IMG/VR virus record: IMGVR_UViG_3300005673_000094
Location: 1 to 64,000 of that record
Source of the DNA: a virus
DNA length: 64,000 nucleotides
Direction: 5' to 3' (one strand)
Shown: positions 50,376 through 64,000 of the stretch, piece after piece
Position numbering within the stretch: the first letter of the stretch is position 1
Layout of the letters: each line of letters starts with the position of its first letter
Notes under the pieces: generated by a model
Told to the model about the DNA's origin: nothing
Database searches by the model: none
What the model saw: the letters and a program-made list of their open reading frames with translations, nothing else
Made by a program: the position numbers and the translations under genes

Positions 50376-50738
50376 TCATGTCGCCGCCTCCGCGTCCTCG
50401 TGGCCGGTGAAGGCGCACATGAGCCGCATTTCGCGGTTGCCGAGCCCGACGTTGTCGATCCTGAGGATCTGCCACAGGTTGCCTCGGGCATCCCGGACGC
50501 GGTCCCGGATGTCGAAGGTGAGCGTGGTGTAGCGGATCGTGAAGGTGTCGGTGACCTTCTTGCCGTCGATGTCGACCTGATTCCACTCCGAGGTGCCGGT
50601 GGACTTGACCATGGCTCGGGTGAGGAACACGCGCGTGTAGGCATGGCGCGGCACGGCAGACCCCGGCGCCGGCGGCACGAGCTCGCGCCGCACGACTTCG
50701 ATGGACACCCGCTTGTCGGAGATCAGCGCCTTGGTCAT
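50376..50738 (-). CDS. Head closure/head-tail adaptor (SPP1 gp16-like)
   Basis: TD.FTIRY..DRV..W.I..I. Confidence 0.7.
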   Translation of the reverse strand: MTKALISDKRVSIEVVRRELVPPAPGSAVPRHAYTRVFLTRAMVKSTGTSEWNQVDIDGKKVTDTFTIRYTTLTFDIRDRVRDARGNLWQILRIDNVGLGNREMRLMCAFTGHEDAEAAT

Positions 50739-51430
50739 CCGACGGTCACCCACCGATAGACGTGGTCGCCGAGGATGTTGCGGGCCTCGGCCGGGATGAT
50801 CGAACTGCCCCGGCTCTGCTTCATCGCGTAGACGGTGACGTTGGCGCCGGGGCTCGCCTGGGTGTCGCCGCGCGCCATGTCGAGGGCGGCGGTGGTCATC
50901 AGGAGGGCGTGGCGGATCTCCTCGGGCAGCGGCGGGAAGCCGGCGCTCTCGTCGCCCTCGGTGACAGCGAACCCGGCGCGCGCCGTGATCCGAACCGCGT
51001 CGTGGCGGCGGGCCGTCTCGGGTAGCGTGGCGCCCTCGCCGATGAACAGCATGCCGCAATCCTGGGCGATCGGCAGGGCGTGCCACAGCGACGAGTCGAG
51101 CGTCTTGATCTCGCCCGTGCCGTCCTCGACGTACTGGACCTGCGTCACGTCGAGGAACGGGCGCAGCACGAGTCGGGTGTGATCGTAGAAGGCCGGGAGC
51201 GTGCCGACCCACGTCGAGGCGGTGGCGATGAGGCGGCAGTGGCGCTCGATCTCGGCCTGAGCGATCGCGATGAACGACTGCTTCTCGGCGTCGAAGAACG
51301 TGTCCTCCAGGGGGATATTGAGGAACGTCTTCAACTCGTCGACGTCGATGGCCAGAGTCGAGCCGCCCGCCGTGTGCTTCCAGCGGATGGTCGGCGCGGG
51401 AGGTGTGGCGAGCGGCGGGCCGGAGAACAT
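50735..51430 (-). CDS. Head-tail connector (gp6/gp15-like)
   Basis: VDELKTFL..IA.A..IERHCR; AV.IT..AGF; LP..IRHA.L. Confidence 0.8.
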   Translation of the reverse strand: MFSGPPLATPPAPTIRWKHTAGGSTLAIDVDELKTFLNIPLEDTFFDAEKQSFIAIAQAEIERHCRLIATASTWVGTLPAFYDHTRLVLRPFLDVTQVQYVEDGTGEIKTLDSSLWHALPIAQDCGMLFIGEGATLPETARRHDAVRITARAGFAVTEGDESAGFPPLPEEIRHALLMTTAALDMARGDTQASPGANVTVYAMKQSRGSSIIPAEARNILGDHVYRWVTVG

Positions 51431-51433
51431 GCG

Positions 51434-52558
51434 TCACACCTTGCTGGTCTTGCCGTCGCGGGGCGTGCCGCCGTAGGGCAGCACCTGCGCCCCGCGAGAG
51501 ATCGCGGCGTTGATTCGCGCTTGGTCGCTCCATCCCGACGAGCCGAGTCCTGACACGGGCGCCGAAGCGCTCGCCGTCTGCATCGCGGCGTAGTTGCTGT
51601 CGGCCGAGGCGAACCGCTGAGCGGACGCCGCGTCGAGGCGGCCGTTGACGCCGCCGGTGCGCTGCTGCCGGCCGGGCGCGGGCGGCTTGTACTCGGGCCT
51701 GATGTTGCCGTCGGGCCCGAACTGCTCCGGAAAGGTGCGGTTCATCTCGCCCGGCTTCTGGAGTCGCTGGGCGTTGTCCTTGAGCCACTTCTCACCGCCC
51801 CAGCCGACAGGGCGGTTGGCGCCCTTCGGCCCCTTGTAGGGGGTCAGTTGAGACGGCGGCGGGGAGCTCGGGTTGACGGTGCCATCCTTGCGGAAGCGGT
51901 TGTCGGACTCGCGGTATGCGGCGAGCGGGTGCTTGCCTTGGGCGCGGAGCAGCATGTCGTCCCTGCCGCGGGCTTGGCCTTTCAATCTGTCGCCGCGATC
52001 TGCGTGGACTCCGGCACTAAGCGCGAGTGACGTTCCTGCACCAACGCCCGCTGTAGCCAGCGCGAGGTTGCCCATCGCCGCGTTGAGGCCCGCGCCAGCA
52101 AACGACATGCCCGCACCGATCGTTAGGATTCCGGCGCTGCGGTGCTCTTTGCGGCCCTTTTCATAGGTCCGCTGCGCGATCGCTGTCGTCGGTTTTGCCT
52201 TCTTCGCCATGGATGCCCCCGCTGTCATGAACTGCACCGGCGCCTCGGCGCGCGGCTTGGGTGATTTGCCCTGCTGCTTCTCTCGGTACGCGTCGGACTT
52301 CTTCTTCGCGTCGTAGATCGCCGAGCCGACCGCGTAGGCCGCCGCTCCGACCGCAGCGATTGGCAGGGCCCGCGTTGCGAGCGGCACCGCCTTCGAGATC
52401 AGCTTGGCGCGGAATGCCGGATCGCGAACCGCTTGCCGAGCGATCTCGGTCACAACATGCGTGCCGAGCGCCGCACCGCCGACGCCGACCAGCGCTTGGT
52501 TGAGACGACTGTCCCACCAGCGAGGCTCGCGCTTCGGCTCTTGCTTGCGGTCGGCCAC
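51434..52558 (-). CDS. Putative internal/ejected virion protein with shared C-terminal motif
   Basis: Basic, G/A-rich; ends AQRFASADSNY..SGWSDQARINAAISRGAQVLPYGGTP. Confidence 0.7.
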   Translation of the reverse strand: MADRKQEPKREPRWWDSRLNQALVGVGGAALGTHVVTEIARQAVRDPAFRAKLISKAVPLATRALPIAAVGAAAYAVGSAIYDAKKKSDAYREKQQGKSPKPRAEAPVQFMTAGASMAKKAKPTTAIAQRTYEKGRKEHRSAGILTIGAGMSFAGAGLNAAMGNLALATAGVGAGTSLALSAGVHADRGDRLKGQARGRDDMLLRAQGKHPLAAYRESDNRFRKDGTVNPSSPPPSQLTPYKGPKGANRPVGWGGEKWLKDNAQRLQKPGEMNRTFPEQFGPDGNIRPEYKPPAPGRQQRTGGVNGRLDAASAQRFASADSNYAAMQTASASAPVSGLGSSGWSDQARINAAISRGAQVLPYGGTPRDGKTSKV

Positions 52559-52565
52559 GGCGCCC

Positions 52566-52772
52566 TCACTTCCGCCGCGAGGGCGGCACCGGCTGCGGCG
52601 TGTTCGTAGACTGCTGCAGGTCGGCGAGGTGGCGGATGTTGACGATGCCCGGACCGACCTCGTTTGACGGCTGCGCCATCATCCGGTCGTGGATCGGGTT
52701 GGACGGGGCAGGCTTCTTGGCCATGGCGGATCCTTTCGGGGGGCTGGTGCTGATGTCGCTGCGGTAGGTCAT
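52566..52772 (-). CDS. Small hypothetical protein
   Basis: ATGA coupled. Confidence 0.45.
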   Translation of the reverse strand: MTYRSDISTSPPKGSAMAKKPAPSNPIHDRMMAQPSNEVGPGIVNIRHLADLQQSTNTPQPVPPSRRK

Positions 52773-54535
52773 GATTTCTTGTCCTTCGGTGCGGCTGGCG
52801 GCTTGTAGTTCTCGGCTTGGCTGGGGTCGCCGCCGTAGGGCGCATTCTGTCCGCCCGGGTTGCGGGCGTAATAGCTGGCGATCACCGCCTCCGGACCGAA
52901 CCCGGGCTCGCGGCCGGACGACTCCGGCGGCGCGGCCGCTTCTCGCTGCTGCCCGCCGCTTTCCTCCTGCGACGCGCGGTAGGACCGTTCAGCCGCGTTG
53001 AACCGCTTCGCCGTGTCGGCGGTGAGCTTGGGCGGCGCGGAGCCCGCCACTGAGGCCGCCGACGATGGCGCCTTGGCCTGCCCGCCGGCGGCCGTGTAGT
53101 TGTTGATGGCGAGCGTGGTGGCGTCCCCGCCGCCAGACCCGGCCCACTTGGTCCAGGCGGTCGAGGCGAGCCCGCCCGTAAACGTGTCGGCCGCTCCGAG
53201 TGCCGCTCCTCCTGCGATGCCGCCCCACGACGCGCCACGCTGCGACGCCTTGTAGGCGCCAGCGCCAGCGCCAACGAGAGCCGCGAGGGCGGTGAGCGGC
53301 AGCGCAGCCTTCGAGACGATCGCGGCGAGCTTCGGCGCCGCCCGGCCGATGAGAGTCGGCGCGGCGAGCGCGACGGTTGCCGGCGCGGCCCCCTTCGCAG
53401 CGGCTCCGGCGGCTTCAAGGTTCCCGGCGCCCTGCGCCTTTGCGGCGTTCCAGCCCATCACGCCATGCGTCACTGCGGAGGTCGCAAACATTGCCGGCGT
53501 GGCGACCGCGAGCCCATACATCGCCTTGTTGCCGAAGCCCTGCAATTGCTTGAGGCCGGTCATCGTGTCTTTGGTCGCGATGGCGGCTTTCGCAGCGGTC
53601 TTGCGGACGGCGCGGCTCTTGGTCCCGGTGGCGACCTGGCGGGCGTCGGTGACACCGCCGCTCGCCTCGGCGAAGTCCTTGAGTGTCGCTTGGCTGTGAG
53701 CCTTGGAGACCGGCAGGACGCCGATACGCTGCACCTGAGATTTGGCGTCCAGAGAAACGGCGATCGTTTCTCCATAGGGCAGTCGTCTGATGACGCCATC
53801 GTGCCCTTTGGCGCGCGCCTGTTTCACGATTTTATCGAAGCCGAGAGACGTGCCTTTCCACGACCTCGGGTTACCCTTCTGGACGTAGTCCTCGACCAGC
53901 GGATTGTTAAAGGTGACCTTCGCCGCTTCGACGACGCCTCTGGGGCCAGCGTAGGGCTGGGCCCGCGTGATGTCCGTCGTGTAGAAGCGGCCGCCAGGAA
54001 TGAACTCTTTCCCTTTGGGCGCGGGCCCAGCCGACTTTGCCCCTCGATAGCCGACAATCGTGACCGGCTTGACCTTCTCGCCGCCAGACGGGGCCGCAGA
54101 GGCGGTCGCTGTCGAGCGTGCCGCCTTCCCCTTCGCAGTCACTTCCTTGCGCTGGTCACGCGCCATCTGTGACATGGCGACGTTCTTGACGTCGGTCGCG
54201 ACGACAGCCGAGGCATCACCCGTCGACCGCGGCGGGGCTTGGCGCGTCTGAGCCCGGCGCGCGGCACGGCCGGCATGCCTCACCTCGACGCGCTGATCCT
54301 TTGCCAGTTGTCCGACGGCGACGTTCTTGATGTCGATGTGGGCGGTCGTTCCCGCAGCGGCCTGGACGACCTGCTCGACTGGCGATGGACCGGGCCGCGC
54401 CGTTCGCTGCTGAGCCTTGGCGCTCATGCTCCGGACCTGCTTGGCGACAGTCGGACGCGCGCCCTCTTTCGGCGCCGGCGAGTGCGCCGCTGTCCGTGGT
54501 GAGGTCTTGCGTGGTGTCCCGGTCGCCCGTCCCAT
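52769..54535 (-). CDS. Putative internal virion protein with ART-PolyVal-like ADP-ribosyltransferase domain and shared C-terminal motif
   Basis: YRG..G.FYT..A..YA..V..NPL..GHDGVI..E; ends GFGPEAVIA..NAPYGGDPSQAENYKPP. Confidence 0.7.
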   Translation of the reverse strand: MGRATGTPRKTSPRTAAHSPAPKEGARPTVAKQVRSMSAKAQQRTARPGPSPVEQVVQAAAGTTAHIDIKNVAVGQLAKDQRVEVRHAGRAARRAQTRQAPPRSTGDASAVVATDVKNVAMSQMARDQRKEVTAKGKAARSTATASAAPSGGEKVKPVTIVGYRGAKSAGPAPKGKEFIPGGRFYTTDITRAQPYAGPRGVVEAAKVTFNNPLVEDYVQKGNPRSWKGTSLGFDKIVKQARAKGHDGVIRRLPYGETIAVSLDAKSQVQRIGVLPVSKAHSQATLKDFAEASGGVTDARQVATGTKSRAVRKTAAKAAIATKDTMTGLKQLQGFGNKAMYGLAVATPAMFATSAVTHGVMGWNAAKAQGAGNLEAAGAAAKGAAPATVALAAPTLIGRAAPKLAAIVSKAALPLTALAALVGAGAGAYKASQRGASWGGIAGGAALGAADTFTGGLASTAWTKWAGSGGGDATTLAINNYTAAGGQAKAPSSAASVAGSAPPKLTADTAKRFNAAERSYRASQEESGGQQREAAAPPESSGREPGFGPEAVIASYYARNPGGQNAPYGGDPSQAENYKPPAAPKDKKS

Positions 54536-54538
54536 GGC

Positions 54539-56818
54539 TCAGTACGGCCTCCGGTCTTTCGGCGGCACGTAGCCGGGAGCCTGAGTCGGGTCTCCTCCGT
54601 AGGGGAGGTTGACGGCTCCGCGAGCCTGAGCGGCCGCGATGCGCGCCTCGGGGCTCCACCCGGAGCGCTCACCGGTCGCCTGAGGCTGACCCTGGCCCAT
54701 GTGGTCGTAGTTCGCGTCGGCCTTGGCGAAGGTCTGCGCCTGGCCGGCGGAGACGCGTCCCTGAGTCGGCCCGCCAAACACGGCGTCATAGGCTCGCTCG
54801 CCGAGTCCGCGGCCGTCCTTCATCAGGCCGGTGCCGGCGCCGATCCCGGTGACGATCGCGGTCGGGTCGAGCGAGCGCAGAGCGCCGCGCGCGGCCCCGC
54901 GGACAGCGTTGCTGTCCTCCTTCGCGCCCTGATAGGCGCCCCATACCGCCATGGCTGGCGCAGCCGCCTTGCCGGCCACCTTGAGGGCAGCACCAGCCGC
55001 TTTAGCGCCGGCCCCGAGAAGTCCTGTCGCGCCGACAAATCCTTCGGCGGCATTCGTCCCCAGGACGCGACCCAACCCTGGATTGCGAGGCACCCACGCG
55101 TCATGAGCGCGCTGGGCCACGCCGAGCAATCCGTCTCCCGCTTTTGACAGCGCGTTGCCGATCGGCTTGGCGCCGAGCATCAGCGCGCCCGGAGTTGCCG
55201 CGAGAGCGCCCGCGCCCATCGCCTCGCCGGTGGACTTGCCTTCCTGCTTCGCCTTGTTGAACGCCTGCGCTGCGGCGACGCCCGTTCCGACGACGGCGAG
55301 CCCGGTGTTGACCTGTCCCCATGACGGCAGGCGCGATCCGCTCGACTGAGCGGGCGGGGCCGGAGGAGCAGGGGGCTTCATCCCCATGGCGGAGTCGTTG
55401 GTGACGCCCTTCGGCGGATACGTCGGCATCTGCGATGCGACCATCGCTCCGCCCAGTCCGTGGCTCTTCACCAGAGCGAGCTTCTGCTGCTCGGTGAGTG
55501 TGCCGGGCGGCTGGCCCGGGCCGGGGCGGACCACGTCTTTGAGTGTGGGCGGTGTCGCTCCGATCTTGTTCCAATGCTCTCGTGGTCCTGGTGGAGTCGC
55601 GGGAGGCTTCGGAGCGTTCCGACGCGCGGCATCACTCGCCGCCTGCGCAGCGTTCACCTTGTCGATGAAGGATGAACCCGTGCTGGCGTGGTCGGCGGAT
55701 GGGTTGCGGGCTAGGCCTTTGTTTAAGCTCCCTTGGTAGCCCCACTTCATGGACTCGGATTTTGAGAGCATTCGCTTGATTGACATGCTTTTCGGCGGTT
55801 CACGTCCGCCATGAGCCGCTTTGTAGGCGTCGACCGCTGCCTGCCGCTTCGCCGAAGATGCCTTTGCAGGCTTTGCCTGGGATGTGGACTTCACCTTCGC
55901 GAAATCCGCGCCAAACGTCTGCTTCTGGTTCCCATAGACGCTGCCATCGACCTCGGAGCGGAAGATCACGCCGCCCTTCTTGATGGTCTGCATCTCGCCC
56001 CAGGGCGCCTTGATCTGGACGTCCTCCTTGACGCGCACCGCGCGCCCGGTGCTGCGCGACCGGTATTCGCCCGGCTTGGAGGGGTCCCTCTCGTAGAGCT
56101 TGTCCCACTTCTCCGAGGAGACGACGTAACTGTCGCCTGGCGAGCGCGTAACGATGCGGTCTCCCGCCTTCGCGGTCCGCTTCGTCTCGACGAACGACCC
56201 ACCCTTGCCGTCCGGTTGGCGCGTGACGATCTCCTCGCCGCCCTTCGCAACGGCGACCTGAGACTCGCTCAACCGCGCCGTCTTGCGATAGAGCGGGGCC
56301 TTTGAGAAATCGAAGTCGTTTGGCGTGACCACGCGCGGTGCCGCCGCATTGCCTCCGAACGGCCGCTCCCCTCGCGCCACCCGCGCGAACCTCTCCGCCG
56401 CCCGGCGCTTCGGACCGCCATCGGACCCTCCTGCCTCGGTGCGGTTCGCAGCGCGGGCCGCCATGCCCGACGCGACCGCGGCCCGCTTCTGACCGGTCGG
56501 CGCATCGGACGCCACCTTCGGACCGTTGTTCGCCGAGAGCGCTTCGAGCAACTGCCCGCCGGAGAACGAGCGCGCCGTGCTGGCGATGGTCTTCTTGGCC
56601 CGCATGTCGGCTGCCCTCTTGTAGATCTGACGCTCGACGATGCGTGTCGCCTCAGCCTCAGTCTTGCCGGGCTGAGGCTTATTGGCCTTGTTCCAGGCGG
56701 CGACGGCGGTCGGGCCCTTGGCCTTCACATCGCGCGGCGCGGTCCGCACGTTCGACGCCGGCCTCGCCTCGCGGATTACCGCGTTGCCCACCTCGTCGTA
56801 GCGTGTGGACTTCGCCAT
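54539..56818 (-). CDS. Putative internal virion protein with PGDYG-like domain and shared C-terminal motif
   Basis: YRK..GD.IVT..GDSYVV..KLYE / APWG..GG..Y; ends SGWSPEARIAAAQARGAVNLPYGGDPTQAPGYVPP. Confidence 0.7.
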   Translation of the reverse strand: MAKSTRYDEVGNAVIREARPASNVRTAPRDVKAKGPTAVAAWNKANKPQPGKTEAEATRIVERQIYKRAADMRAKKTIASTARSFSGGQLLEALSANNGPKVASDAPTGQKRAAVASGMAARAANRTEAGGSDGGPKRRAAERFARVARGERPFGGNAAAPRVVTPNDFDFSKAPLYRKTARLSESQVAVAKGGEEIVTRQPDGKGGSFVETKRTAKAGDRIVTRSPGDSYVVSSEKWDKLYERDPSKPGEYRSRSTGRAVRVKEDVQIKAPWGEMQTIKKGGVIFRSEVDGSVYGNQKQTFGADFAKVKSTSQAKPAKASSAKRQAAVDAYKAAHGGREPPKSMSIKRMLSKSESMKWGYQGSLNKGLARNPSADHASTGSSFIDKVNAAQAASDAARRNAPKPPATPPGPREHWNKIGATPPTLKDVVRPGPGQPPGTLTEQQKLALVKSHGLGGAMVASQMPTYPPKGVTNDSAMGMKPPAPPAPPAQSSGSRLPSWGQVNTGLAVVGTGVAAAQAFNKAKQEGKSTGEAMGAGALAATPGALMLGAKPIGNALSKAGDGLLGVAQRAHDAWVPRNPGLGRVLGTNAAEGFVGATGLLGAGAKAAGAALKVAGKAAAPAMAVWGAYQGAKEDSNAVRGAARGALRSLDPTAIVTGIGAGTGLMKDGRGLGERAYDAVFGGPTQGRVSAGQAQTFAKADANYDHMGQGQPQATGERSGWSPEARIAAAQARGAVNLPYGGDPTQAPGYVPPKDRRPY

Positions 56819-57177
56819 CAGCGTAGGTTCTCCAGCTTGTAGACCGTGCGGTGGTAGAGCGCGGCGAGTTCGTCGATCAGGTTCTCGACTGCGTCACACC
56901 CGCGACTGACCTGCTTCTTGTTGGCCTCGATCCACTCCGCCTCTGCGGAGAGGTGCTTGGCGATGTCGCTGACCTTCCACGGCAGCGCTGGCACGGCGAA
57001 CGGGTCGATCAGTCCGAACTTGCCCTGGTAGACCTCGACGATCTCGTCGATCGCCTCAATGAGATCCTCGTAGAACGAGCCCAGCGCCATGTGCGTCGCG
57101 TAGCTCTTGGTCGCGAAGTGCGCCAAGTGCGCCGCGCTGCGGGTCGCGAAGACTCGTCCGACGAGGCCCTCGATCAT
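56818..57177 (-). CDS. DUF5856 ferritin/Dps-like four-helix protein
   Basis: AHLAH..T.SYA.H.AL..FYE.L..D.IVE.YQG..ENLIDE..YKL. Confidence 0.8.
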   Translation of the reverse strand: MIEGLVGRVFATRSAAHLAHFATKSYATHMALGSFYEDLIEAIDEIVEVYQGKFGLIDPFAVPALPWKVSDIAKHLSAEAEWIEANKKQVSRGCDAVENLIDELAALYHRTVYKLENLR

Positions 57178-57686
57178 CACTTCTTGGCCTTCCCGCCCTT
57201 CTTCGCGGCCGGCGCGGGCGCCGCCTTGGTTGCGGGTGCTGGCGCTTGGGCCTTGTTCTCCATCGGGGGCTTGTGCACATCGCTCTCCTGTTCGGCTGAG
57301 GCTTCTTCGGCTTCGGGCTGCGCGCCGTGCGCGCGCTCCACCGCTTCCATCACGTCCTGCTCGGACATCGGATCGGCGAGTCCCTTCTCCACCGCGAACG
57401 CGGCGAGCTTCTCGTCGGCGAAGCACACGATCGAGCCTTCTTCGACGACGACCGGCGCAGCGCGCGGCTCCTCGGGATCCTTGATCGTCGGCTCGCTCGG
57501 GATGTGCGCGTTGAGGAAGTAGGTGGCGTCATCCTCGCGCGAGAACCCGATCACGAGTCCAGGCTCAACGACGAGCGATTGGTGATCGACGGACCACACG
57601 GCCTTGACCAGCGCGCGGATCAGGAACGTGGTGCCGAAACTCGGCCAGTGTCCCGGCGCCTTGGCGCGCACGAAGTGATACGGCAT
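57177..57686 (-). CDS. Hypothetical protein
   Basis: Downstream of capsid; acidic/Ala-Lys-rich tail. Confidence 0.55.
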   Translation of the reverse strand: MPYHFVRAKAPGHWPSFGTTFLIRALVKAVWSVDHQSLVVEPGLVIGFSREDDATYFLNAHIPSEPTIKDPEEPRAAPVVVEEGSIVCFADEKLAAFAVEKGLADPMSEQDVMEAVERAHGAQPEAEEASAEQESDVHKPPMENKAQAPAPATKAAPAPAAKKGGKAKK

Positions 57687-57752
57687 GCAAAGCCCCCTCA
57701 CTGGAAGATCGGGTCGAGGCCGCAGCAGAGCGCCGCGGCCTCGCTCACATCA

Positions 57753-58229
57753 TCAGGTCTCGATGCTCGACTGCCAGACCGGCTTGTGCATCGGGTGGCC
57801 CTGGAGGGTGATGATTTCGATCGGCGTGCCCGACGAGTGCGTGCCGCCGAACTCCAGGCGCAGGCGGCAGTACCGCTTCTTGCCTCGGTAGCCGACGAGG
57901 TTGTAGACGGTGTCGGCAGCGGCCTTGGCGGCCGTGTACGACTTCACGATGCCACTGCCGGCCGTGCCGTAGGTGAGCCCGTAGGGCAGGATCAGGTCAT
58001 CGGCGACGACCTCGTTCCAGGCCGAGTTGTCATCCGACTCCTGGATGACGATGTCGAGGCGGTTGGTCGAGGTGAAGGTGATGCCGCCGATGCCGACGTA
58101 CCAGCCGAGGGTCACGGACTTGTAGAGTTGCGTGTCGACAGCCGGGCCGTTGGCGTCCGCGTCGAGGGTGGCGAGCACCGTGCCCACGGGCATGCGGATG
58201 TTGCTCACCAGATCGTAGTCTGCGCTCAT
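57753..58229 (-). CDS. Head decoration/minor capsid protein
   Basis: Follows capsid; QESDD..W..V; GY.G.KRY.RL. Confidence 0.65.
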   Translation of the reverse strand: MSADYDLVSNIRMPVGTVLATLDADANGPAVDTQLYKSVTLGWYVGIGGITFTSTNRLDIVIQESDDNSAWNEVVADDLILPYGLTYGTAGSGIVKSYTAAKAAADTVYNLVGYRGKKRYCRLRLEFGGTHSSGTPIEIITLQGHPMHKPVWQSSIET

Positions 58230-58271
58230 TTCGAGTCACTCCGAAGGATGGGGTTCGTGCGTGCGGCTGCG

Positions 58272-58289
58272 GCGGGCCCGAAGGCCCGC
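58272..58289 (-). terminator. UUCG stem-loop after the major capsid gene
   Basis: GCGGGCC TTCG GGCCCGC on the minus strand. Confidence 0.45.
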
Positions 58290-58306
58290 TCGCCGTCACG
58301 TCAGGA

Positions 58307-59587
58307 TCAGGCCTTGATCCGCATGATCTTGAAGGCTTCCGGCATGATCACGCGACCGGTGAGGTATCGCCGGAAGGTCCACTCGGTGATCGCCTGGCGC
58401 TTCTTCGTCAGGTCGTCGCGGATGACCGAGATACCCATGAGGTCGAAAATCTCGTAGCCGCGGCGCATGTCGCCGAAGATGATCGGCTTGGCGCCGGCGC
58501 CCGTCTGCGCGTCGGCCATGTTGATCATGTCCGACGAATACGGGAAGCCCCAGATCGTGGCCGGAGTCTCGCCCGCGACCGGAGACCAGATCGGCACGCC
58601 GATCGACGACTTGATCTGCCACATCTTCGCGAGCGTGCGCCGGTTGAAGAACCACATTGGCATCTGGCCGCGCTTGAGCTTGCCGGCGATATTGGCCATG
58701 TCGAGGAAGTCGACCTCGCCGGTGGTGGCGGTGTCCACGACCTCGATACGGGTATCGCTGATGATGCCCTGCGGCCCCTTCACGCCGAGGCCGGTGAGGA
58801 AGTTCTGGCCCTCGTTGAGGCCGAACGACTCGCCGACGTCGCTGGCGATCTCGCGCTCCAGATCGAAGGCAGACGAGATCATCATGTCGAGCGTGGCCGG
58901 CACGGTGACCGACTGGCGGTAGAGCGTGACCTGCTCGCTGCCGTAGGTCGACTCGGACGTGTCGTCCTGCTCCGCCTCACCCTCAAACGAGGCGACGAGG
59001 AGCGCGAGACGACGCGGCACGTCCATGGTCTTGGACGGCGCCACGCGGTTGCGGGCGTACAGCCGGACCGGGCTGATCTCGGTGATGTTCTTGCGGATCT
59101 CGTTGTCCATGATCTGCGGGATCAGGTACGCGCCCTGCGTCTCCGAGTCGGTGCGCAGCGTCTTGAGATCTAGGTCCGTGTTCATGTGCTTCTTCGGATG
59201 GTAGGCAAGCCACCCGAAGAAATTCTTGTACTCGTCGGACGAGCGAGCGATCTGCGGATCGTCGCCGGTCTTGCCCTTGTTCTGGATCAGCAGTTCGAGC
59301 TGCTCCACCCGCTGCTTATAGCCGGTCGAGTCCTTCTTGAAGTCGGCGAGTTCGGTCTCGGCCTTGGCGACCGCGGCCTTGAGTTCGGCCTCGACGCGCT
59401 CCTTCTCAGCCCACTTCTTGGTGACGCTGTCGGCGAAGTCCTGGTACTTGCCCATGAAGTCGAGGACGTTCTTCTTGGTGTCCTCGGGCAAGATGCCCTT
59501 CTTGACGCCGTCGATGTCGCTCTGGAGCGTGGCGAGGGCGTCCTTGACGTCCTTCGCCATCTTGGCGGGATCCGGGATGTCGTTCAT
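58307..59587 (-). CDS. Major capsid protein, HK97 family
   Basis: Coiled-coil delta domain; GAYLIP; FLTG.G.KGPQGI; IFGDMRRGY. Confidence 0.95.
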   Translation of the reverse strand: MNDIPDPAKMAKDVKDALATLQSDIDGVKKGILPEDTKKNVLDFMGKYQDFADSVTKKWAEKERVEAELKAAVAKAETELADFKKDSTGYKQRVEQLELLIQNKGKTGDDPQIARSSDEYKNFFGWLAYHPKKHMNTDLDLKTLRTDSETQGAYLIPQIMDNEIRKNITEISPVRLYARNRVAPSKTMDVPRRLALLVASFEGEAEQDDTSESTYGSEQVTLYRQSVTVPATLDMMISSAFDLEREIASDVGESFGLNEGQNFLTGLGVKGPQGIISDTRIEVVDTATTGEVDFLDMANIAGKLKRGQMPMWFFNRRTLAKMWQIKSSIGVPIWSPVAGETPATIWGFPYSSDMINMADAQTGAGAKPIIFGDMRRGYEIFDLMGISVIRDDLTKKRQAITEWTFRRYLTGRVIMPEAFKIMRIKA

Positions 59588-59606
59588 TGCTCTCTCGGGG
59601 ATGTTG

Positions 59607-60656
59607 TCAGCCGGACTTGCGCGCGACAACGGAGGACAGTGCCTCGCTGATGGCGCTGAGGAGCTTCACTGCATCCTCGGGGGCCGCAGCATCCCGCTGC
59701 GGATGATCTCGGCCAGCATCCCGCTGGCCTGCTGTCGACAGTCGTGTGGCGAGCTTCCTGCTGAGACCGATCCCGCGCAGACGAGCTTCCCGCTCGCCCA
59801 GATCGAGGGCATCGAACTCCTCAACGGAAAGAGACTTGCGAGGGCTCTCCATCGAGAGCGAGGCGTAATACCTGTCGAGGTGATCCTGTACGACCTCGAC
59901 CGCCTGCTCTGAGAGATCAACTCCGCCCCGAGCGCCACACAGCGCCGCTGACGCCTTGAACAAAGCCACAGGATTCGCGACGAGTCGAGAGGTTTTCTCA
60001 TCCACGTCGGCGATCAGCAGGCGCGGGTCCCACTGATCGATGCCCTTCTCGTCATCGGCGAACAGGAACGCCTGACGGACCTCGGCGCTGCCGGCGAAGT
60101 GCTTCTTCACGCGCTCCAGCGCGGCCGCCGCGTCCCACGACTTCGCCTCGCGCGCGATCGGGAGATCAGCGAACGGCACGACGCCCTTCACCGTCTCGAC
60201 CGCAGCGAGCGGATTCATCGGCATGTTGACGATGCTGATCTCGTAGAGCCGGATCTGCTTCAGCAGCCGCGCGCCGTCCTCCTTGCGCCGGTCCTTCTCG
60301 GTGGCCTTGTAGCCGATCGAGGTGCCGCGCAGGCCGCGCCGCTTCAACTGCGGCACGATGCGGCCGGCGACGAACGAGTCGTCCTTGGGGAGCTCGGCCT
60401 TGAACCACAGGCCGCGCTTGTCCTCCTTGGCATCGAGGATGGTGCCGATCGGCGCATCCTCCATCTTGTGATTGAACAGCAGGAGCGGCATGCCGTGCTC
60501 GCGCAGCGACTTCGCGAATGCGCCAGGCACGACGACGTCGTTGCCGAGGTCGGTGTTGTTGAAGATCGAGCCGTAGCCCGTGATGGTCCAGCAGTCCTCG
60601 CTCTCCGCGAGCGCCTTCTCCTCGAAGTCCACGAGAGCGCCGTAGTCGCGCAGCAT
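59607..60656 (-). CDS. HK97-family prohead protease with C-terminal extension
   Basis: GYGSIF..D..ND.V.PGAF; LLFNH..PIG; GTSIGY; LYEISIV..P.NP. Confidence 0.95.
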   Translation of the reverse strand: MLRDYGALVDFEEKALAESEDCWTITGYGSIFNNTDLGNDVVVPGAFAKSLREHGMPLLLFNHKMEDAPIGTILDAKEDKRGLWFKAELPKDDSFVAGRIVPQLKRRGLRGTSIGYKATEKDRRKEDGARLLKQIRLYEISIVNMPMNPLAAVETVKGVVPFADLPIAREAKSWDAAAALERVKKHFAGSAEVRQAFLFADDEKGIDQWDPRLLIADVDEKTSRLVANPVALFKASAALCGARGGVDLSEQAVEVVQDHLDRYYASLSMESPRKSLSVEEFDALDLGEREARLRGIGLSRKLATRLSTAGQRDAGRDHPQRDAAAPEDAVKLLSAISEALSSVVARKSG

Positions 60657-60783
60657 GGCAGGTGTTCCTTTCAGTCTCGAATGCGCTCCGCCGGGCGCGG
60701 GTTGTCCCTCGCGAGAGGGGGATCTGACGCGAGAGACACGGGGCGGGCCGCGGGCGGATGCGCGACCTCTGTACGCAATCGGG

Positions 60784-62769
60784 TTACGGGGAGACGCGAC
60801 GCAGGTGCTCGGCGGAGTGCGTCACCGAGCGTCGAATGAGTTCCTCGATGCCAAGCGGCTCGCGCCCGGCGGCGATCTGGACTCGGCGCACGACGCCGGT
60901 CCGGGTGTTGACCTCAGCGCGCGCCACCACGTCACGGCCGATGCTGACCACCAACGTGCCCGGCGTCTCCTGACGCATGCGGGCAATGGTGCGGCCGTCC
61001 CCGAGAACGACTCGGGCGTCCGTGGTGCCGTTGAGCGTGACCGCCTCGGTGGCGCGGATCGGCGTTGGGTTTCCGGGCTTGTCGCCGGCGCGCCACGTCC
61101 GTCGGGCAGGGAGGTGCGGTGTGTTGATCTGGAGCTCGACCCGGCGTCCGTCATTGCCGATGGCCACGTAGTGCGCGCCGCACCTACAATTGTGGGCAAG
61201 CAGCCCGTTGGCGTAGTACCAGCCCTGGTCCGTCTCTATGTTGTAGACATGACCAACGAACCGGCGCCTCTCGACGAGCGCAACATCGTCGAACGATACA
61301 CGGCTGGCGAGTCCGAGAAGGCGCTCGCCATCGCCCTCAAGACCACCCGCGAGCGCGTTCGGCGCATACTGCTGAAGAACGGGGTCGAGCGCCGGGGGCG
61401 CAGCGCGGCGATGTACAATCGCATGTCCCGATCCGACACCGACACCCGCAAGGCACTCGCCCGGAAAGCCAACGAAGCCAGGCGCGGCCAGAAGGCGAGC
61501 CACATCGAGAAGTCCCGAAAGGCCGCCTGGAAGGAAGCGACCAAGATCAAGACGGGAGCGGTCGAAGAAACGCTGGTGTCCATGCTGGAGCATTCTGGCG
61601 TGACGACCAAGCCGCAGGCTGCTGTCGGCCCGTACAACATCGACATCATGTGTGGGCCGGTCGCCGTGGAAGTCCACAGCGGAACGCACTTCCCGCACAG
61701 TCACGAAGCGACCCGAGAGCGCATTGAATACCTGTTCGATGAAGGGCTCAACGTCATCTACGTGATGTGCGTCGTGCAGCGGAAGAACAAAACGCCGCGG
61801 CGCGTCATGCGCCTGCCCAACGGAGCCGCAATGGCCGACCTTGTCGCCTTCATTGAGCGATCCAAGGCCGACCCAGCCTTTCGACGTCAGTATCGGGTGG
61901 TTCGGAGTTCCGGCGAGCTTGTGGCCGAGGCGGGTGGTGATCTCGATCAGATCGCCCGAGTACCAGTGCCGCGTCGCCGCCCTGACGAACCCTGACACTC
62001 GCGTGTCGCCGGGGAAGCAGTTGATCAAGTTCCCCAGCGAAGCGCCGAGCGTCGAGTCGCCTGGGAACATGAGCCGCTCGCCGGAGACCACGAACGGCTG
62101 CGAGACCAGCACCTCCTGATCCTGCGCCGCGACGTGGTCGAAGGCTGACTTCGGGGGATGCCGGACGCGGTCGTCCTTCATCGTCTCCCAGCGCTTGTAG
62201 ATGCGGGCGTTGGCGTGCTTCTGCTTCACCCACCGGAAGATGGCGCCCTCGACTGCCTCTTGGGTCTCGTTGTTGACGATCGCCCGCATGCGCGCCTTGA
62301 CCTTGCGCCACGCCGTCTGCGCCGTCTCTTTGAGCTTGCCCGTCATCCACACCGACCACGGCTGCTTGTCGCTGGCCTTGGTCTCGTAGTGGGCCGCCAC
62401 CGCCTTCTGTGTGAGCCCGACCTGCTCGGAGGCGCGGGCAAGCTCGCGGTCGATCGACTGCATGTACCGCAGCGACTGCCGGTGCGCCCGGGCGGCGAGG
62501 CTCTCGCGGTGCTGAGCGTCGAGCGCGGCGTCGTCGAGCCGGGCGTCGCGCGGCGGGCGGATGCCGCGCACCACGTAGCAGCAGCGCGCGTAGTGCCGCA
62601 TGAGCACCTGCTCGATGGACGTGCGCGCGCTCACCGTCTCCCAGAACGGGACGCGCGACTCCGATCGCACCCACAGCGCGATGTAGGCGGCAAGCGCTTG
62701 GCCGAGCGGGCGAACGAGTTCCTGCTCCAGGGCCAGCTTTGCCTTCAAAACGTCCGAATCGGCCGCCAT
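60784..62769 (-). CDS. Head morphogenesis protein (MuF/SPP1 gp7) containing an intein
   Basis: KRW.T..D.RVR..H..Q..F.V.G..L.FPGD..LIN|intein|CRC. Confidence 0.9.
   Translation of the reverse strand: MAADSDVLKAKLALEQELVRPLGQALAAYIALWVRSESRVPFWETVSARTSIEQVLMRHYARCCYVVRGIRPPRDARLDDAALDAQHRESLAARAHRQSLRYMQSIDRELARASEQVGLTQKAVAAHYETKASDKQPWSVWMTGKLKETAQTAWRKVKARMRAIVNNETQEAVEGAIFRWVKQKHANARIYKRWETMKDDRVRHPPKSAFDHVAAQDQEVLVSQPFVVSGERLMFPGDSTLGASLGNLINCFPGDTRVSGFVRAATRHWYSGDLIEITTRLGHKLAGTPNHPILTSKGWVGLGSLNEGDKVGHCGSVGQAHDAPRRFVLPLHDAHHVDDVEPFIEQVFNALSGRFVTVREVRSAVDFHGDRPTHDVDVVRADSSLRLGRHARMLQHGHQRFFDRSRLDLGRFLPGGLSGLLDVARLLAAPGFVGFPGECLAGVGVGSGHAIVHRRAAPPALDPVLQQYAPNALAGGLEGDGERLLGLASRVSFDDVALVERRRFVGHVYNIETDQGWYYANGLLAHNCRCGAHYVAIGNDGRRVELQINTPHLPARRTWRAGDKPGNPTPIRATEAVTLNGTTDARVVLGDGRTIARMRQETPGTLVVSIGRDVVARAEVNTRTGVVRRVQIAAGREPLGIEELIRRSVTHSAEHLRRVSP
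61189..62019 (-). mobile_element. Intein (277 aa) in MuF
   Basis: Block A CFPGDTRV; block B TPNHPIL; blocks F/G VYNIET..YYANGLLAHN followed by +1 Cys. Confidence 0.92.
61249..61995 (+). CDS. Antisense HTH + PD-(D/E)XK (Vsr/DUF559-like) endonuclease nested inside the intein
   Basis: IVERY.AGES..LA..RVRRIL..GV HTH; E..L..Q..VGPYNIDI..VAVEV..H..R..YL..G..V. Confidence 0.8.
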   Translation: MTNEPAPLDERNIVERYTAGESEKALAIALKTTRERVRRILLKNGVERRGRSAAMYNRMSRSDTDTRKALARKANEARRGQKASHIEKSRKAAWKEATKIKTGAVEETLVSMLEHSGVTTKPQAAVGPYNIDIMCGPVAVEVHSGTHFPHSHEATRERIEYLFDEGLNVIYVMCVVQRKNKTPRRVMRLPNGAAMADLVAFIERSKADPAFRRQYRVVRSSGELVAEAGGDLDQIARVPVPRRRPDEP

Positions 62770-62860
62770 CTTCGCTTTCGGTCTCGCGTCCAGTACTTGC
62801 GTTGCACATCTCCAGAGAGCCCGAGCACCGGTTTCGCGTCGGTTCGGGCTCTCCGCGTTT

Positions 62861-63283
62861 CTAGGACACGGTGACCGTGACGCTGCCGACCGCCCCCGTG
62901 GCGCTCACCCCCGTCACCACCGCCTCCGCATCTGCGTCGTTGATCGATTGTAGCGACCGGAACTTCCCCCGAGCCACCGCGACACTGGATCCATTCGACA
63001 GCGTGACCTCCAACTCGTGGATGTAGTCTCCGACGTCACGGAACAACCGCTTGGGCAGAGTCACGGTGATGACGTTGGCGGCGATCGCGATCTGGCCGTT
63101 TCCACTCGTGAGCGTGAGCACCGACGCCCCGAGCGTGCCGGGGCTCAGCACCGGAGCGAGCGACCACCGCGCGCTAGCGCTGGTCAGGTCGGCCGCTCGC
63201 CTGGTCGCGTGATCGAGCACGGTGAACGCCATCACCAGCGAGTCGCCGGCAATGTAGTCGAGGATGTTGACCGGCGTGGTCAT
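62861..63283 (-). CDS. Structural protein (BppU-like beta domain)
   Basis: GDS..F.V..DLT..ASAR; G.Y.HELEVT. Confidence 0.6.
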   Translation of the reverse strand: MTTPVNILDYIAGDSLVMAFTVLDHATRRAADLTSASARWSLAPVLSPGTLGASVLTLTSGNGQIAIAANVITVTLPKRLFRDVGDYIHELEVTLSNGSSVAVARGKFRSLQSINDADAEAVVTGVSATGAVGSVTVTVS

Positions 63284-63408
63284 CGGATGCAGACCCTGTG
63301 CGTGGCAATGGTCCTGAGCGACACGTCGTAGCGCCGCGGCGTCTCCAGGCTCACCGTCGCCTCGAAGGTCGTGGTCAGCGTGACGGTGAAGTACAGCGTG
63401 TCGGGCAT
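63280..63408 (-). CDS. Small hypothetical protein
   Basis: Coupled on both sides. Confidence 0.4.
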   Translation of the reverse strand: MPDTLYFTVTLTTTFEATVSLETPRRYDVSLRTIATHRVCIR

Positions 63409-63839
63409 CACTCGATCCGAACGATGGCGGTCGCCGGGTCGGCGGCCGGGAAGGTGACGGTGAAGTTGCCGCCGGCCGAGGACTTGTCGGCGCCAAAGTC
63501 GATCACCGCGACGGCGCGATTGCCTTGGCTGGAGTTGTAGATGAGTGCCCCTCGCGCTGTGATGGTCGATGTCGACCACGTCACGTCGGCGAAGTCGGTG
63601 AAGGCCGATGTGCCGGACGCCGCCGGGTCCACCCGGGTCAGTGTGGCGCCGCCGGTGGTGTAGCCGTTGCCGTTCGCGACCTCGTTGGTGGCCGAGTAGG
63701 CCGTCGTCGCAGCGCCGAGCGTGGCAACGTTGGTGTAGAGCGCGATCTTGAAGGTGTCGCCGCCCGAGAGAAGGAAGTTGTGCTTGGCCTCAAGCAACTC
63801 CTTCTTGAAACTCGTGCACATCGCGGATGTGATGGCCAT
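63408..63839 (-). CDS. Conserved virion structural protein
   Basis: MAITSAMCTSFK.ELL..HNF..FKIALYT..GYT.GG.TL..DF.D..W..ARGALIYN. Confidence 0.75.
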   Translation of the reverse strand: MAITSAMCTSFKKELLEAKHNFLLSGGDTFKIALYTNVATLGAATTAYSATNEVANGNGYTTGGATLTRVDPAASGTSAFTDFADVTWSTSTITARGALIYNSSQGNRAVAVIDFGADKSSAGGNFTVTFPAADPATAIVRIE

Positions 63840-63846
63840 GACGCTC

Positions 63847-64000
63847 TCAGGTCTTGGGTTTCGACTTCACCGGCGGGACGTAGCCGGGAGCTTTCTCTGC
63901 GTGCCCGCCGTAGGGCAGAACGGCGGCGCCGCGAGCTCGGGCCGCCTCGATGCGAGCCTCAGGCCCCCATCCCGGCTTGCGAGCGCTGGGCGGCTCAGCA
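63847..64000 (-). CDS. 3' end of a fourth protein with the shared C-terminal motif (partial, not in ORF track)
   Basis: Manual translation ..KPGWGPEARIEAARARGAAVLPYGGHAEKAPGYVPPVKSKPKT*. Confidence 0.8.
   Translation of the reverse strand, partial: AEPPSARKPGWGPEARIEAARARGAAVLPYGGHAEKAPGYVPPVKSKPKT

Follow-up and report, generated by a model that had tools for sequence, protein, structure and literature searches.

Entry of effector proteins into phage heads is known experimentally only for a few N-terminal signals (T4, P1) and for MuF and portal fusions. Docking of C-terminal peptides on a shell is also known, for the tail of the HK97 protease and for encapsulin cargo; the C-terminal targeting tail of the HK97 protease was reportedly described by Duda, Oh and Hendrix in 2013. 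The T4 and P1 signals comprise 10-30 residues at the N-terminus; those of T4 are removed by a gp21-type protease, and the P1 Dar proteins have no consensus (PMC9024508). At the C-terminus, a coat-binding helix-turn-helix or hook is found in P22 gp8 and in the last 25 residues of herpesvirus UL26/UL26.5 (PMC12005531). The polyvalent proteins, finally, have been argued to be packaged in the virion and injected (Iyer, Burroughs, Anand, de Souza, Aravind 2017, PMC5512222). Here we describe a conserved C-terminal module that ends six proteins of diverse payload in the phage of IMG/VR virus record IMGVR_UViG_3300005673_000094 (97,657 bp, rated complete by CheckV), of which bases 1-64000 are the stretch analysed, referred to as the window. 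The six bearers occupy three sites of the packaging/head operon. We give an even chance to the reading, drawn by analogy, that they are virion cargo of the polyvalent kind, whose C-terminal tail would dock in the procapsid and whose hydrophobic hairpins, once ejected, would act at the membrane of the host.

Four proteins had been noted, in a first-pass annotation of the window, to share their C-termini, and these are indeed present on the minus strand, at ends 51434, 52769, 54539 and 63847. The shared part had been described as a motif, or tag, of about 35 residues. This was not borne out: when the last 230-370 residues of five proteins were aligned, homology spanned a module of 200-250 residues that includes hydrophobic segments. 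It begins with one to four Gly/Ala-rich hydrophobic helices, whose hydropathy over 19 residues peaks at 1.3-2.0, followed by a conserved Lys-Gly-Ala stretch and a helix, alpha-1, whose core (F..AN..Y) is the upstream element A(Q/K)xFxxA(D/E)x(N/S)Y that had been reported from the three complete proteins of the window; it was found in all three and in two further ones. Next come a variable polar linker, a second helix, alpha-2 (GWS..ARI, ending Arg-Gly), a Leu-Pro-Tyr-Gly-Gly turn (PYGG), a proline-containing stretch and a basic end. The part from alpha-1 onwards is here called the tail. The four proteins named earlier all bear it, but four is too low a count, as the record encodes five PYGG-tailed proteins (A to E) and a sixth (F) with a variant tail. 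The bearers, and the parts located within those of the window, are the following.

51434..52558, minus strand: 374-residue protein (A)
51434..51640, minus strand: tail of A, with alpha-1, linker, alpha-2, PYGG and a short basic end (from alignments)
52769..54535, minus strand: 588-residue protein (B)
52769..53029, minus strand: tail of B (from alignments)
53126..53524, minus strand: Gly/Ala-rich hydrophobic segments of B, Kyte-Doolittle 19-residue maximum 1.97
53636..54103, minus strand: payload cassette of B, residues about 145-300
54539..56818, minus strand: 759-residue protein (C)
54539..54772, minus strand: tail of C (from the alignment; also modelled alone)
54824..55321, minus strand: Gly/Ala-rich hydrophobic region of C, kept in the positional orthologue on IMG/VR contig G002
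63847-67497 of the record, minus strand: 1216-residue protein (D), directly after the portal gene; the window holds its 3' end, 63847..64000
69390-70481 of the record, minus strand: 363-residue protein (F), between large terminase and portal
74578-76977 of the record, minus strand: 799-residue protein (E), ahead of the small terminase

The likeness among the tails is not due to chance, since the tail of C retrieves D, B, E and A within the record at E = 1e-13 to 3e-7. In a six-frame scan of the record, in-frame PYGG sites near a stop codon were seen only in these five proteins, where they lie 10-26 residues from the stop. F was found when a profile of 114 family tails was run over all open reading frames of the record (E = 6e-4); it has the same hydrophobic region and alpha-1, with a variant alpha-2 and aromatic end, and its positional orthologues in two related contigs bear yet other tail endings. 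The frames of the tagged genes are coding: GC content by codon position follows the order GC3 > GC1 > GC2, with GC3 of 0.78-0.88, and homologues exist at the protein level.

We propose that each protein joins a variable N-terminal payload to this single conserved C-terminal delivery module, the putative payloads in this phage being ParB-like, HExxH plus GNAT-like, ART-like, PGDYG-like, or none. In D, the hydrophobic module and the PYGG tail are accompanied by a ParB-like N-terminus (phrog_10691) and two internal alpha-2 copies; F has a ParB-like Asp-Gly-Asn-His-Arg motif, and E an HExxH motif and a GNAT-like payload. The three proteins encoded wholly in the window are basic, as had been stated (pI 10.3-10.5), and Ala or Gly makes up 28-32% of their residues. 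Two of them had also been credited with recognisable payloads, and here the likenesses found were weak. In C, a PGDYG-like region ahead of the hydrophobic module and PYGG tail was matched at E = 6e-4, below the Pfam cut-off. B opens with a duplicated N-terminal leader, continues with a middle cassette that can be swapped and closes with the hydrophobic module and a PYGG tail of an insertion-bearing subtype; the ESM Atlas look-alikes of its cassette are ART-PolyVal clusters at a score of 0.89-0.90, which derives from language-model features and is a lead only. Assignment of B as an ART by Pfam failed, both for B and for its orthologues. A, the smallest of the PYGG-tailed bearers (pI 10.5), has the Gly/Ala hydrophobic helices and the PYGG tail (tail profile 82.9 bits); it matches nothing in Pfam, PHROG or NCBIfam, and its payload is not recognisable.

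Directly before the hydrophobic module of E, residues 556-586 form a Rho_N/SAP-like helix-extended-helix motif, the Pfam family of which also matches three other members of the tail family. This suggests a DNA-binding element beside the module.

To follow the tail beyond this phage, a profile of the five tails was searched against 1.84 billion cluster representatives. It matched 90 of them at E <= 1e-3 and 40 at E <= 1e-10, with lengths of 54-2319 residues. The family comes from Logan, ENA and JGI metagenome assemblies and one NCBI whole-genome shotgun contig, and no protein is informatively named; on several other contigs, two or three tagged proteins occur together. In about 88 of the 90 representatives the matched region is followed by a few residues at most, and PYGG lies a median of 17 residues from the end. 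P0015, in which another 72 residues follow the tail, and P0080, an unrelated repeat protein rejected as a false positive, are the two exceptions. N-termini cannot be aligned (mean column identity 9%). The outcome is the one that had been predicted from the window: matches are C-terminal, N-termini are variable and effector-like, and all contexts examined lie among portal, MuF, protease, capsid and terminase genes. Some additional relatives have another ending after the same hydrophobic region, alpha-1 and alpha-2; PYGG is therefore one subclass of a general ending composed of alpha-2, two or three residues, an aromatic residue and Gly.

A protein of 337 residues from a metagenome (P0083) has a ParB-like N-terminal region fused straight to the second half of alpha-2 and the PYGG end. 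It resembles a D-like protein that has lost the hydrophobic region and alpha-1 through a natural in-frame deletion.

The motif had been expected to be strictly C-terminal. This holds for the full tail, but not for its alpha-2 half, which alone also occurs internally, in 32 copies in about 22 proteins. An internal copy usually has a conserved Pro-Gly-Glu-Ala-Lys stretch behind it; with neither alpha-1 nor PYGG, these copies are not the same signal as the tail. That they lie in interdomain linkers of giant members would fit a different role for alpha-2, terminal and internal alike, as a recognition or cleavage site of the S78 prohead protease or of a cargo-borne zincin, the tail being a propeptide removed at maturation; autoprocessing of polyvalent proteins has been predicted by Iyer et al. 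(PMC5512222), and E has its HExxH motif. Nevertheless alpha-2 is unlike the inferred capsid cleavage region, the internal copies, without alpha-1 and PYGG, differ from the terminal signal, and small members (110-370 residues) have nothing to cut apart. Such a role seems to us distinctly unlikely, and cleavage could in any case coexist with docking, as the T4 targeting sequence shows. Mimicry of the C-terminus of the phage's own protease was a separate candidate; it was rejected, the protease end not being matched by the tail profile.

The module of D (229 residues) was modelled with AlphaFold 2 from an alignment of 32 sequences. The mean predicted local distance difference test score (pLDDT) was 67.5; within the hydrophobic part a helical hairpin scored 85-89, and alpha-1 as well as the segment from alpha-2 through PYGG to the proline stretch scored 90-97. 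The two tail helices were predicted at residues 159-175 and 192-201 of this module. The tail of C modelled alone (77 residues) had helices at 9-26 and 41-50 and gave a pLDDT of 91-93 over alpha-2 and PYGG and of 75 over alpha-1. A tail that is locally well defined and non-globular would be as expected for a docking peptide that folds on its partner. Neither model had a significant fold match: Foldseek searches against PDB and BFVD returned nothing at E <= 0.001; with VIA-align the tail alone reached Z <= 2.7, with nothing specific, and the module Z <= 7.8, with generic helical hairpins only. Of the 72 members of at least 250 residues, 67 have hydrophobic segments in the 250 residues that lead up to the tail, and the remainder of long members showed a hydropathy of at least 1.6 in only 2 of 36. 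A sorting signal of the sortase, exosortase or rhombosortase type was rejected; in those the motif precedes the terminal transmembrane helix, and here the order is reversed.

Since the hydrophobic Gly/Ala segments are conserved as strongly as the tail, the module could instead be an ejectosome, membrane-channel or anchoring domain, in which the tail is an oligomerisation or host-side element and not a capsid address, with packaging through N-terminal leaders or MuF, for example. The confident helical hairpin agrees with this, as does the finding that the best structural alignments of the module are mostly with transmembrane hairpins, at non-specific Z below 8. Furthermore, the phage's own tape-measure protein has segments of the same style, and the conserved N-terminal leader of the 588-residue family could be the real packaging signal. 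The known ejection proteins P22 gp7/gp16/gp20 and T7 gp14-16 resemble the present proteins in that their genes follow the head genes; they are carried inside the virion, exit together with the DNA and act at the envelope. They differ, however, in having neither a shared terminal motif nor exchangeable enzymatic payloads, and no sequence or fold similarity to known ejection proteins was detected by Foldseek against PDB and BFVD, by PDB sequence search or by VIA-align. This explanation also fails to account for why, in about 88 of 90 clusters, the very end of the protein should be a soluble two-helix tail, and the phage has a contractile tail with a tape measure of its own. We consider this explanation unlikely, and it overlaps with the membrane step proposed for virion cargo rather than excluding that reading.

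The payload regions of the family were characterised by a Pfam scan covering 62 members, with the following matches.

LPD1: 5 of 62 members
Methyltransferases: 4 of 62 members
GNAT: 3 of 62 members
Rho_N-like helix-extended-helix: 3 of 62 members
LPD23: 2 of 62 members
LPD5: 1 of 62 members
NUDIX: 1 of 62 members
ADPrib_exo_Tox: 1 of 62 members
ART-PolyVal: 1 of 62 members
No Pfam match: most of the 62 members

Several effector or LPD domains can share one polypeptide, as in P0084 (LPD1, LPD5, LPD23 and a methyltransferase) and in a protein of 1992 residues (LPD1, LPD23 and a methyltransferase). None of the 62 matches Phage_Mu_F, that is, no MuF domain is present in cis. In being large multi-domain proteins encoded beside virion genes, and in carrying LPD1, LPD5, LPD23, methyltransferase, ART-PolyVal, GNAT, NUDIX, ParB-like and HExxH modules, these proteins belong to the polyvalent-protein theme. 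The multi-domain character is evident in the family and weak in the three window proteins, which have one weak domain or none each. Unlike the polyvalent proteins as described, of which PMC5512222 makes no mention of transmembrane or glycine-rich segments, those studied here share one common C-terminal module, covered by no LPD or Pfam family and present as well at the end of small proteins that bear one payload or no payload; and the MuF and portal fusions proposed there as a packaging route are absent in cis. MuF-fused effectors (MuF toxins, SPP1 gp7 fusions) differ in the same respect, since MuF is here a separate gene.

The C-terminal module itself is new with respect to Pfam, NCBIfam, PHROGs, PDB, PMC5512222 and the literature searched. 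No model in Pfam, PHROGs or NCBIfam covers it, the PDB sequence search gave no match, and no description was found in literature on the motif strings and on C-terminal phage targeting signals. No match came from 72,556 plasmids searched by tblastn with the tail, from pattern scans of IMG/VR based on the first two alignments or from scans of GTDB (185,579 species genomes); prophages of sequenced species thus show no sign of the family at the sensitivity of the GTDB scans. The lack of matches in cultured phages, plasmids and these species genomes, together with the fact that all contexts compared come from one lineage, would fit plain paralogy, with duplication of one ancestral gene within a single phage lineage and a C-terminus that has no role in addressing or delivery. 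We find this highly improbable, as the N-termini are unrelated and include at least 10 different Pfam domains, cassettes have been swapped on a constant module, and the module is kept at 30-70% identity where the remainder is unalignable.

The swapping is clearest in the orthologues of B (P0011, P0100 and P0099), in which the duplicated leader and the C-terminal module are nearly unchanged; the cassette is replaced in one orthologue and absent in two. Tail subtypes are exchanged as well. D and C, from the same phage, have tails 65% identical, against only 43-44% between the tail of D and those of its own positional orthologues, and the tail of one D orthologue, P0106, is closest to that of E. 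Since the subtype does not follow payload orthology, the tail behaves as an evolutionary unit of its own. Exchange of both kinds fits the modular design that the first-pass annotation had proposed.

The leader of B (54103-54535) consists of a duplicated basic repeat of about 30 residues, kept in all orthologues whatever cassette comes next; it could be a second functional element, for example in packaging or DNA binding. The N-terminal ParB-like domain of D recurs, at 45% identity, in a hypothetical protein of 3912 residues of Ruegeria phage 45A6 (KT820175.1, L015:6829-18567), which has another C-terminus; the same payload thus rides different carriers in different phages.

The position of the tagged genes among those for packaging and the head is seen from the neighbouring features, given here in transcription order.

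77403-78827 of the record, minus strand: TnpB/OrfB gene of IS605 type (Cas12f1-like TNB, OrfB_IS605 and helix-turn-helix domains), just upstream of the gene for E and the packaging operon
Between the genes for E and the HNH endonuclease: open reading frame of 172 residues, then the small terminase (late operon)
L008:9035-9667, minus strand: HNH endonuclease (phrog_374, E = 2e-62), between the small and large terminase genes
Between the HNH gene and that for F: large terminase
Between the genes for F and D: portal
Between the genes for D and MuF: two small genes with PHROG matches only
60784..62769, minus strand: stand-alone MuF-like head morphogenesis protein with an intein (PHROG head protein/head morphogenesis families; Pfam Intein_splicing, E = 2e-7)
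59607..60656, minus strand: S78 prohead protease (Pfam Peptidase_S78, E = 4e-27)
58307..59629, minus strand: HK97-type major capsid protein with an N-terminal scaffold (delta-like) extension (Pfam Phage_capsid, E = 2e-38, residues 166-437)
Between the capsid and DUF5856 genes: phrog_5707 gene
56818..57426, minus strand: DUF5856 protein (Pfam DUF5856, E = 2e-16), translationally coupled to the gene for C
52566-52772, minus strand: open reading frame of 68 residues without a match, whose ATG overlaps the stop of the gene for B (ATGA) and which fills the gap before the gene for A
50735..51430, minus strand: head-tail adaptor (phrog_442, E = 2e-12), the downstream limit of the three-gene block of putative cargo
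After the head-tail adaptor: sheath, tube and tape measure genes

As had been noted, the three window proteins sit between the HK97-type capsid gene and the head-tail adaptor. The start of the gene for C overlaps the stop of the DUF5856 gene (junction TGATG), and the gene for B begins 3 nucleotides after that for C. The late genes are on the minus strand, and GC content is 62-69%. Four contexts were compared, that of this phage and the three below.

JACCDG010840680.1 (99,970 bp): tagged protein of 1992 residues (LPD1, LPD23, methyltransferase), small terminase, large terminase, ParB-like bearer of 352 residues, portal, P0106
ERZ724522 contig 2333: portal, tagged protein of 1591 residues, MuF, S78 protease
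IMG/VR contig G002 (45 kb of an estimated 100 kb), first part: ParB-like bearer of 349 residues, large terminase, portal, tagged protein of 1412 residues, MuF, S78 protease, capsid
IMG/VR contig G002, after the capsid gene: orthologue of C of 523 residues and a protein of 338 residues, both variant-tailed, then the adaptor

In all four the tagged genes stand among terminase, portal, MuF, S78 protease and HK97 capsid genes in the same synteny, and a free MuF gene adjoins a tagged gene in three of them. G002 and this phage share 56% identity in the capsid protein, scaffold extension included. P0106 (1341 residues) matches D at 66% identity in the first 365 residues and at about 30% in the module. 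Such embedding in, and translational coupling with, head and packaging genes is difficult to reconcile with the view that the hydrophobic segments mark late membrane-anchored proteins of the producing cell, outside the virion (acting for example in exclusion, DNA modification at the membrane or lysis control), with the module as an anchor bearing a conserved cytoplasmic or periplasmic end. The payloads, moreover, are the anti-defence and host-takeover domains of injected polyvalent proteins, of little use late in infection, and the protein of Ruegeria phage 45A6 that shares the N-terminal domain of D is of polyvalent type and encoded just after an annotated tail-fiber gene. We regard that view as quite improbable.

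As virion cargo, the six proteins would be handled in two steps. During assembly of the procapsid, the two-helix tail would dock the protein inside the HK97-type shell or on its scaffold extension, the capsid protein with this extension being the candidate receptor; alternatively the tail may dock on the portal or on the free MuF protein, a candidate adaptor. Internal alpha-2 copies in giant members may provide extra contacts or mark processing sites. After ejection through the phage tail, the Gly/Ala-rich helical hairpins, which resemble those of tape-measure proteins, may enter the host inner membrane or help the protein to cross it, and the payload would be brought to, or held at, the site of DNA entry. 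We favour the reading as cargo because of the head-gene position and translational coupling, the strict C-terminal place of the full tail and the exchange of cassettes; because MuF is absent in cis and adjoins as a free gene in three of four contexts; because the payload types are useful only if delivered early (PMC5512222); and because there is precedent for C-terminal shell binding in the scaffolds of P22 and herpesvirus (PMC12005531).

It is by analogy that we infer the function of the tail as an address tag. Docking by the tail would parallel the C-terminal helix-turn-helix of scaffolding proteins, with which it shares two short helices at the extreme C-terminus (here predicted by AlphaFold 2), a basic last helix and an HK97-fold shell. 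There is, however, no sequence similarity and no detectable fold similarity (best Z 2.7, tail alone); scaffolds exit the capsid, and cargo should stay; and the scaffold of this phage is the N-terminal extension of its capsid protein. Encapsulin cargo peptides and the HK97 protease tail likewise provide C-terminal loading of diverse cargo into HK97-fold shells, and a shell gene is nearby here, but they are short, have no hydrophobic helices and show no motif similarity to the much longer element of this tailed phage. The resemblance to the scaffold helix-turn-helix and to encapsulin peptides is a functional analogy only. The signals of T4 internal proteins and Alt and of P1 DarB (PMC9024508) are comparable as short shared elements on unrelated proteins that are packaged in the head and delivered to the host; the element described here differs in being C-terminal, bipartite and joined to hydrophobic helices, in a phage with an S78 (HK97-type) protease.

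Several observations speak against cargo loading by the tail. The experimentally defined phage capsid-targeting signals, in T4 IPIII and P1 DarB, are N-terminal (PMC9024508). The lone tail of C reached a predicted template modelling score of only 0.43, without a structural match, and the alpha-2 half is not confined to C-termini. The tail is inseparable from the long conserved module, and so it may serve the module's own function and not addressing. Since the 19-residue hydropathy maxima of the module segments are only moderate (1.2-2.0), these need not be true transmembrane helices. Different tail subtypes coexist in one phage, both here and in G002, which argues against a simple lock of one tail and one receptor. 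Further, tblastn of the tail, the whole module and F against 50,697 phage records gave no match and, as all four contexts represent one phage lineage, linkage to head genes is well documented but not replicated across lineages.

In a stronger form of the proposal the module would be self-contained and transferable, the tail sufficing to dock any protein in an HK97-type procapsid and the adjoining hairpins carrying it across or into the host membrane on ejection. We advance this only tentatively and hold it to be rather doubtful. If it were true, a lineage of phages of about 100 kb would run a plug-in system for protein injection, with payload cassettes and tail subtypes shuffled by recombination. 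A module common to many payloads is a candidate second loading route in phages of the HK97/S78 type. It could serve as a cargo-loading handle for engineered capsids, and as a sequence marker of packaged effectors, hence of anti-defence enzymes, in metagenomic phages without recognisable domains.

The closest cultured relatives of the capsid protein are in Rhizobium phage RHph_X2_25 and Azospirillum phage Cd. As even these are only about 30% identical, the phage belongs to an uncultured lineage, whose hosts are probably alphaproteobacteria. An HNH gene between the terminase genes, as found here, is the usual layout of HNH-assisted cos packaging. A long open reading frame on the plus strand (60655-61995) overlaps the intein-split MuF-like gene.

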